From assembly GCA_964016885.1 (NCBI GenBank), contig OZ024747.1, forward strand, positions 91,636,001 to 91,700,000: DNA of 64,000 nt. Direction: 5' to 3'. Position numbers and translations under genes: made by a program. Positions 56,976-57,096 of this stretch are shown here, piece after piece; the stretch's first letter is position 1; the number at the start of each line of letters is the position of its first letter. The notes beneath the pieces were generated by a model. The model saw only the letters and a list, made by a program, of their open reading frames with translations, made no database searches and was not told where the DNA came from. This DNA comes from Eledone cirrhosa (lineage: Eukaryota).

Positions 56976-57096
56976 AAACGGAAAAAATGAAACGCAATTT
57001 CATCTCTCACTCCCAGCACGGGGGCTACTCAAATATAAGCAGGTATACGTACATACACACATGTACACAGACGCACAGCAGCACGTATACGTGCTT
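56976..57096 (-). mobile_element. Truncated copy of the 12466-12780 family between (TA)n tracts
   Basis: Colinear with the reverse complement of 12660-12780 and with 62095-62133. Confidence 0.75.

Follow-up and report, generated by a model that had tools for sequence, protein, structure and literature searches.

A TA-embedded repeat copy in the Eledone cirrhosa assembly with clustered one-strand A-to-G changes: a candidate trace of an ADAR-hyperedited RNA

Here we present a 119-bp non-coding repeat copy, found at positions 56977-57095 of a 64-kb window of the Eledone cirrhosa genome assembly (the window being the whole stretch of 64,000 nucleotides analysed), which is probably the retroposed copy of an ADAR-hyperedited RNA. 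The copy lies between two pure TA runs, 56829-56976 and 57096-57127. Over 56976-57087, which forms its direct part, 14 of 35 family T's are changed to C, against 0 of 44 family A's to G; the initial annotation of this DNA had claimed that the changes were clustered and confined to one strand, and both claims were borne out. The pattern in the assembly is real and statistically strong, yet it rests on one short copy, the letters of which are provisional. Three copies of the family are present in the window (12469-12780, 56977-57095 and 62094-62264), and only this one is hypermutated. The host belongs to a lineage of animals known for heavy RNA editing. No sign of a function was seen for the 119-bp copy.

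Structure and substitutions of the copy

The copy consists of a one-sided tail, a truncated body and a short inverted end piece, set between its target runs:

56829..56976, no strand: left (TA)n target run, 148 bp, unmatched in length by any other pure TA run of the window, preceded by degenerate repeat from about 56780; 74 T, no C or G
56977..57033, minus strand: tail (one-sided extension), presumed RNA 3' end; of 17 T, 6 are changed to C (A>G on the minus strand), the other changes being A>C at 56995, C>G at 57022 and T>G at 57023; matches 12728-12780 and 62094-62133
57034..57087, minus strand: 5'-truncated body (arm); of 18 T, 8 are changed to C; T>G at 57042
57088..57095, plus strand: inverted end piece of 8 bp, identical to the changed 57080-57087 when read as reverse complement; A>G against the family end at 57091 and 57093
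57096..57127, no strand: right (TA)n target run, 32 bp, no C or G; a further 93-bp run lies at 57143-57235

When compared with the family-majority letters, 56976-57089 shows 18 differences in 114 bp and no gaps: 14 T>C, two T>G, one A>C and one C>G. Over these 114 bp the strand bias amounts to 14/36 for T>C versus 0/45 for A>G (Fisher p=2e-6), and it persists at 12/33 versus 0/44 (p=1e-5) when the two doubtful positions, 57025 and 57058, are left out. Within the 81 bp from 57004 to 57084, 14 of 29 T's are changed. Each of the 18 changes yields C or G, and one of them creates a G5 run, while indels are absent and an A6 run is intact. The chance that the four changes of other types should all go to G or C is about 0.005 under the window background. 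This background was taken from a different repeat family of the window (16 copies), in which T>C and A>G together make up 23 of 222 changes (14/18 against this rate, binomial p=3e-11) and 70% of the changes land on A or T. The sister copies differ from the majority letters at 6/109, 3/57, 0/40 and 0/57 bases, without T>C bias.

The inverted end piece forms, with the adjoining letters, a 16-bp palindrome (57080-57095). It matches the changed 57080-57087 at 8/8 positions, the changed arm start at 7/8 and the family end at 6/8. When this piece is included, 16 of 20 changes read A>G on the presumed sense strand, the other four being transversions to G or C. The abutting TA runs hold no C among their 74 + 16 T; being delimited by purity, they count only through the coincidence of their limits with the ends of the element.

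The initial annotation had listed 14 T>C sites, of which 13 are T in the family. The remaining site, 57090, was rejected as a T>C change: a better alignment assigns it to the inverted piece at 57088-57095, in which the family itself has C. A probable fourteenth T>C stands instead at 57025, where the family letter is T or A (T in 508.9/548.1 of the depth in X3, A in 224.2/243.9 in X1, and 589 T and 361 A among 964 reads in X5). At 57058, T accounts for only 901/4268 of the depth in the contigs of organism B, and C for about 5-6% in X1 and X3, so the C of this site may be inherited. It had also been claimed that most changes fall at TpA. This is so for 10 of 14, but 10/20 unchanged T's stand at TpA too (p=0.30), and TpA enrichment was thus rejected as evidence. 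CpG decay, which the initial annotation had dismissed, was rejected here as well, all five CpG steps of the family being retained.

Family letters in contigs and reads

Family letters were taken from alignments at 80% likeness to four of seven runs, which yielded 661 contigs in X1, 714 contigs in X3, 82 contigs in X4 and 33,733 reads in X5; 24 of the 1458 pieces of the family-letter alignment are listed, with 13 rows of other letters beyond them. X1 and X3 are one sample, which may come from another individual, and X5 is reduced-representation data from another sample, making three samples in all. Sampled words (n=400) of 55600-59600 were present at 0.86 in X1, 0.82 in X3 and 0.09 in X4, and X4 was used for family letters only.

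At all 13 unambiguous sites, T is the majority letter in X1, X3 and X5. In X5, reads from about 110 start places carry T in 960/964 cases at 57013, 951/964 at 57014 and 961/964 at 57017; at 57014, T makes up the entire contig depth (263.9/263.9 in X1 and 557.3/557.3 in X3). The contigs of organism B likewise have a T majority at 57004, 57030, 57040, 57060 and 57066. A common subfamily carrying the C letters is therefore excluded by the T majority in X1, X3 and X5, as the initial annotation had needed it to be.

The C letters across 57013-57025 were found in none of the X1, X3 or X4 contigs or X5 reads, and none of the 33,733 X5 reads reaches 99% likeness to the copy. This leans slightly against the C letters being real in the DNA. 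The test is weak, because the contigs are lossy, the sample may be another individual and X5 is reduced-representation data. Contigs of this type are described, in the accessible part of 10.1101/2024.07.30.605881, as simplified, lossy graphs. At 56995, the family A is shown by only 87 contigs in X1 and 95 in X3 in spite of a summed depth near 5e5, from which it follows that most copy-specific variants have been pruned. The same word depth near 5e5, set against pieces of depth 8-20, suggests a family of tens of thousands of copies, depth itself being no copy number. Seven contigs in X1 and eight in X3 run past the tail end (before 56974) into GC-richer sequence rather than TA, a hint that the family has a longer parent element.

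Family anatomy and polarity of the RNA

Two further copies served for comparison:

12469..12780, plus strand: inverted arms 12471-12722 with a tail of 58 bp on one side, in (TA)n; T>C bias absent
62094..62264, minus strand: 40 bp of tail immediately adjoining one inverted arm (62131-62264), in (TA)n; 0 differences from the majority over 40 and 57 bases

All three family copies of the window (3/3) have TA on both sides, and each has an inverted, 5'-truncated piece beside a direct copy: the arms at 12471-12722, the arm at 62131-62264 and the 8 bp at 57088-57095. The long fold-back that had been annotated at 12466-12727 is real; the copy at 12469-12780 forms a hairpin with 126-bp arms (-197 kcal/mol, z -26) and an extension on one side. 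The copies measure 119-312 bp, and the reading frames over them are microsatellite read-throughs, with no reverse transcriptase or GIY-YIG ORF.

Nine TA-associated islands of the window were inspected, and in six of them an inverted repeat reaches one end and is accompanied by a one-sided extension (12469-12780, 13608-13774, 51511-51700, 51727-52589, 53044-54351 and 56977-57095). Three islands lack this build: 32960-33124, 33213-33450 and 62094-62264, the last being the tail piece with its inverted arm. The five islands at 12469-12780, 13608-13774, 51511-51700, 51727-52589 and 53044-54351 represent four unrelated families with a single build, extensions of 58-98 bp and (TA)n on both sides. In two copies of one other family the inversion points differ, giving palindromes of 87 and 110 bp, and the inversions therefore arise at insertion.

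One of these islands has coding content and served as a control:

51727..52589, no strand: putative 3' end of a Penelope-like GIY-YIG-type ORF, of another family; inverted repeat 51793-52589, 66-bp tail 3' of sense, in (TA)n

It encodes a 68-residue stretch for which a full phmmer search returned 21 relatives, all weak, with E from 4e-6 to 1e-3. When 14 of the 21 were aligned, a cysteine motif was seen before a GIY-YIG-like region, with conserved C, C, C and H (CCHH-like); two of the 21 matched Pfam GIY-YIG (E 0.002 and 0.018), though short of the curated cut-off. The frame itself matched no Pfam family, its Atlas matches were all below 0.9, and a word-index search returned none. We read this island, on its sequence features, as the putative end of a Neptune/Nematis-type element. 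Since one of the five islands would thus be a Penelope-like coding end, the MITE-looking islands may be retroposed too.

The tail of the coding element lies 3' of its sense strand, and by this link the family RNA would run toward its tail, that is, along the minus strand at 56977-57087. By analogy with the coding element, then, the T>C changes would be A>G changes on the sense RNA. In its workings the family resembles a non-autonomous Penelope-like element and is a candidate member of that group, although it carries no ORF. Rfam gave no match at gathering score in the window, hence no hammerhead ribozyme match, and comparison of the window with itself revealed no autonomous element sharing the family's end. 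Two scans of metagenome contigs returned 0 and 0 matches to family copies. In the accessible parts of PMC13282606 and PMC5974252, neither this family nor copies of this sort are described.

A model for the origin of the copy

The initial annotation had proposed that an edited RNA was written back into the genome. The dense, one-strand changes, the RNA-type build and the sense A>G polarity are consistent with this proposal; the neighbour preference, which is not significant, and four changes that are not of ADAR type weigh against it. We infer the following sequence of events. The source would be a short, non-coding, very high-copy element moving in the manner of a Penelope-like retroelement, of which the present copy would be 5'-truncated. 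The donor RNA would have formed a duplex, the tail included, with an antisense family copy, and ADAR would have hyper-edited it, converting about 40-50% of its A's to I. Reverse transcription of the element RNA into a (TA)n run would then have produced a direct copy, bearing its 3' tail on one side, and an inverted copy, with the inosines fixed as G. Finally, at the 5' junction, a snap-back or template switch of 8 nt would have carried two edited positions over to the other strand.

The last of these steps bears on the order of events. The inverted 8-mer mirrors the changed letters; on the simplest account its template already bore them, and the changes would therefore precede or accompany integration; the two A>G changes within this piece suggest that the edits predate it. 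The nature of the duplex is constrained by where the sites lie. The initial annotation had looked to the family fold-back as the ADAR substrate, and indeed 8 of 14 sites fall within the long arms of the fold at 12469-12780. The other 6 of 14 lie in the tail, outside the arms, so that the family hairpin alone is not the substrate and a duplex with an antisense copy would be needed.

The ADAR neighbour preference invoked in the initial annotation is reproduced in direction only. None of the four sites with a 5' G is changed (0/14 changed versus 4/20 unchanged, p=0.13), as expected for ADAR, while a 5' U gives p=0.30; the sites are few. A 3' G is found at 1/14 changed and 3/20 unchanged sites (p=0.63), too few for power. 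The A>C, the C>G and the two T>G are not ADAR products and are unexplained by the model. Also, the tails here, at 58-98 bp, exceed the 30-40 bp given for Penelope-type insertions in the accessible part of PMC8557442.

A broader and more tentative reading, which we regard as possible but short of probable, would be that Penelope-like reverse transcriptases mobilise MITE-like short fold-back elements and occasionally write ADAR-hyperedited RNA into germline DNA, with the inverted piece dating the edits to before integration.

Alternative explanations

An unlikely alternative, although one to be taken seriously, is that of an assembly or consensus error, in which an ordinary copy between long self-complementary TA runs was mis-called owing to few or poor reads or to mis-polishing. 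The window's letters at 57013-57025 occur in no aligned contig or read, the copy adjoins the longest TA run of the window, and 18/18 changes land on C or G, with the G5 run among the products, all of which would suit such an error. Its weaknesses are the lack of indels and the intact A6 run, the freedom of the abutting TA runs from C, and the cleanness of other TA-flanked pieces: the 238-bp pieces at 33213 and 33507 are identical, the 1.2-kb hairpin at 53044-54253 carries 2 substitutions, and 12469-12780 is unbiased. Moreover, the 8-bp mirror of the changed letters would require matching errors in opposite senses, and the missing letters may have been lost in the contigs, which are lossy (10.1101/2024.07.30.605881), while X5 consists of reduced-representation reads of another sample. 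A search of the literature for sequencing errors at TA repeats showed nothing relevant. Rather unlikely, too, is error-prone DNA synthesis at integration or repair, in which a Y-family polymerase (eta or iota type) or a reverse transcriptase would have placed dG opposite template T on one strand. The WA>WG pattern, which is the polymerase-eta motif, fits 13 of 14 sites, one-strandedness is expected, and such synthesis could yield the four changes that lie beyond ADAR (two T>G, one A>C and one C>G). It would nevertheless have had to change some 40-48% of the T's over 80 bp without an indel, whereas polymerase eta error rates are far below this and polymerase iota is distributive; the W preference, moreover, is not significant (p=0.20). 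The four transversions to G or C, unexplained by ADAR, keep both error-prone synthesis and consensus error alive.

Deamination of adenine in the DNA after insertion, by ADAR acting on an RNA:DNA hybrid, by an ADAT-like enzyme or by a TpA process like that of Bigelowiella natans, is improbable. TpA has become CpA at 10 of 19 steps, TpA-specific T/A>C/G hypermutation of integrated DNA is known (10.64898/2026.01.13.699255, accessible part), and ADAR editing of hybrid DNA is cited in the accessible part of PMC12925331. But TpA has become TpG at 0 of 19 steps, where the alga's process gives both products, and 4 of 14 sites are off TpA; the changes also stop at the element ends, leaving the flanking TA runs untouched, and the inverted 8-mer mirrors the changed letters, which places the changes earlier. 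That the C letters were inherited from a rare or ancestral subfamily is very improbable. The C at 57058 is common in the contigs of organism B and occurs in X1 and X3, and a very small subfamily could have been pruned from the contigs; against this stand the 951-961 of 964 X5 reads with T at 57013, 57014 and 57017 and the T majority of organism B at its five sites, and the one-strand burst of T>C in a subfamily founder would itself call for an explanation. Scarcely credible is GC-biased gene conversion, or ordinary ageing. All 18 changes do end on G or C, but strand symmetry would be expected of either process, and both were rejected by the strand test (14/36 versus 0/45, p=2e-6) unless the family letters are wrong; the background changes go mostly to A or T (70%). 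Retroposition of an ADAR-hyperedited RNA is thus the reading that we prefer.

Relation to known systems

The nearest parallel in a genome is provided by the APOBEC 'DNA editing' footprints of vertebrate endogenous LTR retroelements, seen as G>A on the sense strand; in the accessible part of PMC4866542, clusters of other mismatches were very rare and 19 invertebrate genomes were at noise level. Like the present copy, these footprints are dense, strand-biased clusters of one change type in a single genomic retroelement copy, fixed at retrotransposition as is proposed here. They differ in being G>A changes in vertebrate LTR elements, whereas here the changes are A>G in a non-LTR, non-coding element. 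The proposed step from edited RNA to DNA is shared with avian retroviruses, in which nearly 50% of A is changed to G in inverted-repeat regions, and with HTLV-2/STLV-3 (PMC12925331, accessible part). Avian retroviruses are infectious, however, and here the element is endogenous, non-autonomous and located in an animal genome assembly.

At the RNA level, ADAR hyper-edited clusters occur in young repeats that form dsRNA, with 5' G avoided (PMC4365171 and PMC9989829), and pairing with an antisense copy is described for metazoans (PMC9989829), both as given in the accessible parts of these sources. Dense one-strand A>G in a repeat is found here as well, and the scarcity of 5' G points the same way without being significant (p=0.13). 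Those clusters are differences between RNA and DNA, whereas the changes described here stand in a DNA assembly, without enrichment of 3' G and with a purity of 16/20.

Penelope-like insertions (Neptune, Nematis and Naiad) are described in the accessible part of PMC8557442 as having an inverted 5'-truncated copy, a 30-40 bp tail at one end and a (TA)n target; in some genomes the copy number of these elements runs into tens of thousands, Naiads are recorded for Octopus spp., and Naiads are without hammerhead. The inverted 5'-truncated copy, the tail at one end and the (TA)n target are features that the present family shares, but it is without an ORF, has a 58-bp tail and showed no direct pseudo-LTR. 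In integrated viral DNA of Bigelowiella natans, T/A>C/G transitions are regional and restricted to TpA, giving both CpA and TpG (10.64898/2026.01.13.699255, accessible part). As here, the changes run against the usual AT bias and many are at TpA; in contrast, the present changes are on one strand, with 10 of 14 at TpA, in a single 112-bp copy.

While deaminase scars in endogenous retroelements are known for APOBEC in vertebrates, we found no published case of an ADAR scar in an endogenous element, invertebrate elements included, in the open-access literature. If the one described here is real, hyper-edited RNA can template retrotransposition in the germline, by which RNA editing would lead directly to heritable change in the DNA, and germline ADAR activity can be counted from DNA; a census of the tens of thousands of copies would then amount to a fossil record of that activity. 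It would also suggest that many TA-embedded fold-back 'MITEs' in such genomes were retroposed.

Other features of the window

Several further repeats were noted in the window. The island at 53044-54351 is a near-perfect 1.2-kb palindrome with two substitutions between its arms, a duplication of 170 bp inside it and an extension of 98 bp on one side, and it is probably a very young insertion. Two 238-bp copies at 33213-33450 and 33507-33744 are 100% identical with TA runs between them, the first 63 bp being an exact inverted copy of 32972-33034; the pair represents a recent duplication or an assembly duplication. A 502-bp direct duplicate, 99.6% identical, is formed by 62904-63405 and 63499-64000 and reaches the end of the window.

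Beside the family copy at 62094, the minus strand carries at 62380-62850 a protein-like fragment broken by a TA run, which we take to resemble the C-terminal end of an RTE-type LINE protein; Pfam gave no match for this fragment. Transposase-like frames in three pieces (278, 190 and 175 residues) occupy 36263-37990 and presumably resemble hAT-type transposases, with no passing Pfam match for the first piece. The window also contains a 7-kb satellite at 8-7153 (20-bp unit, 372 copies) with a strong strand skew (AT skew about -0.42). At 25451-26483 a SINE-like repeat with AAT tails is present as a head-to-tail array of four 201-bp copies, 98-99.5% alike; about 20 dispersed copies of this repeat family are spread over the window.
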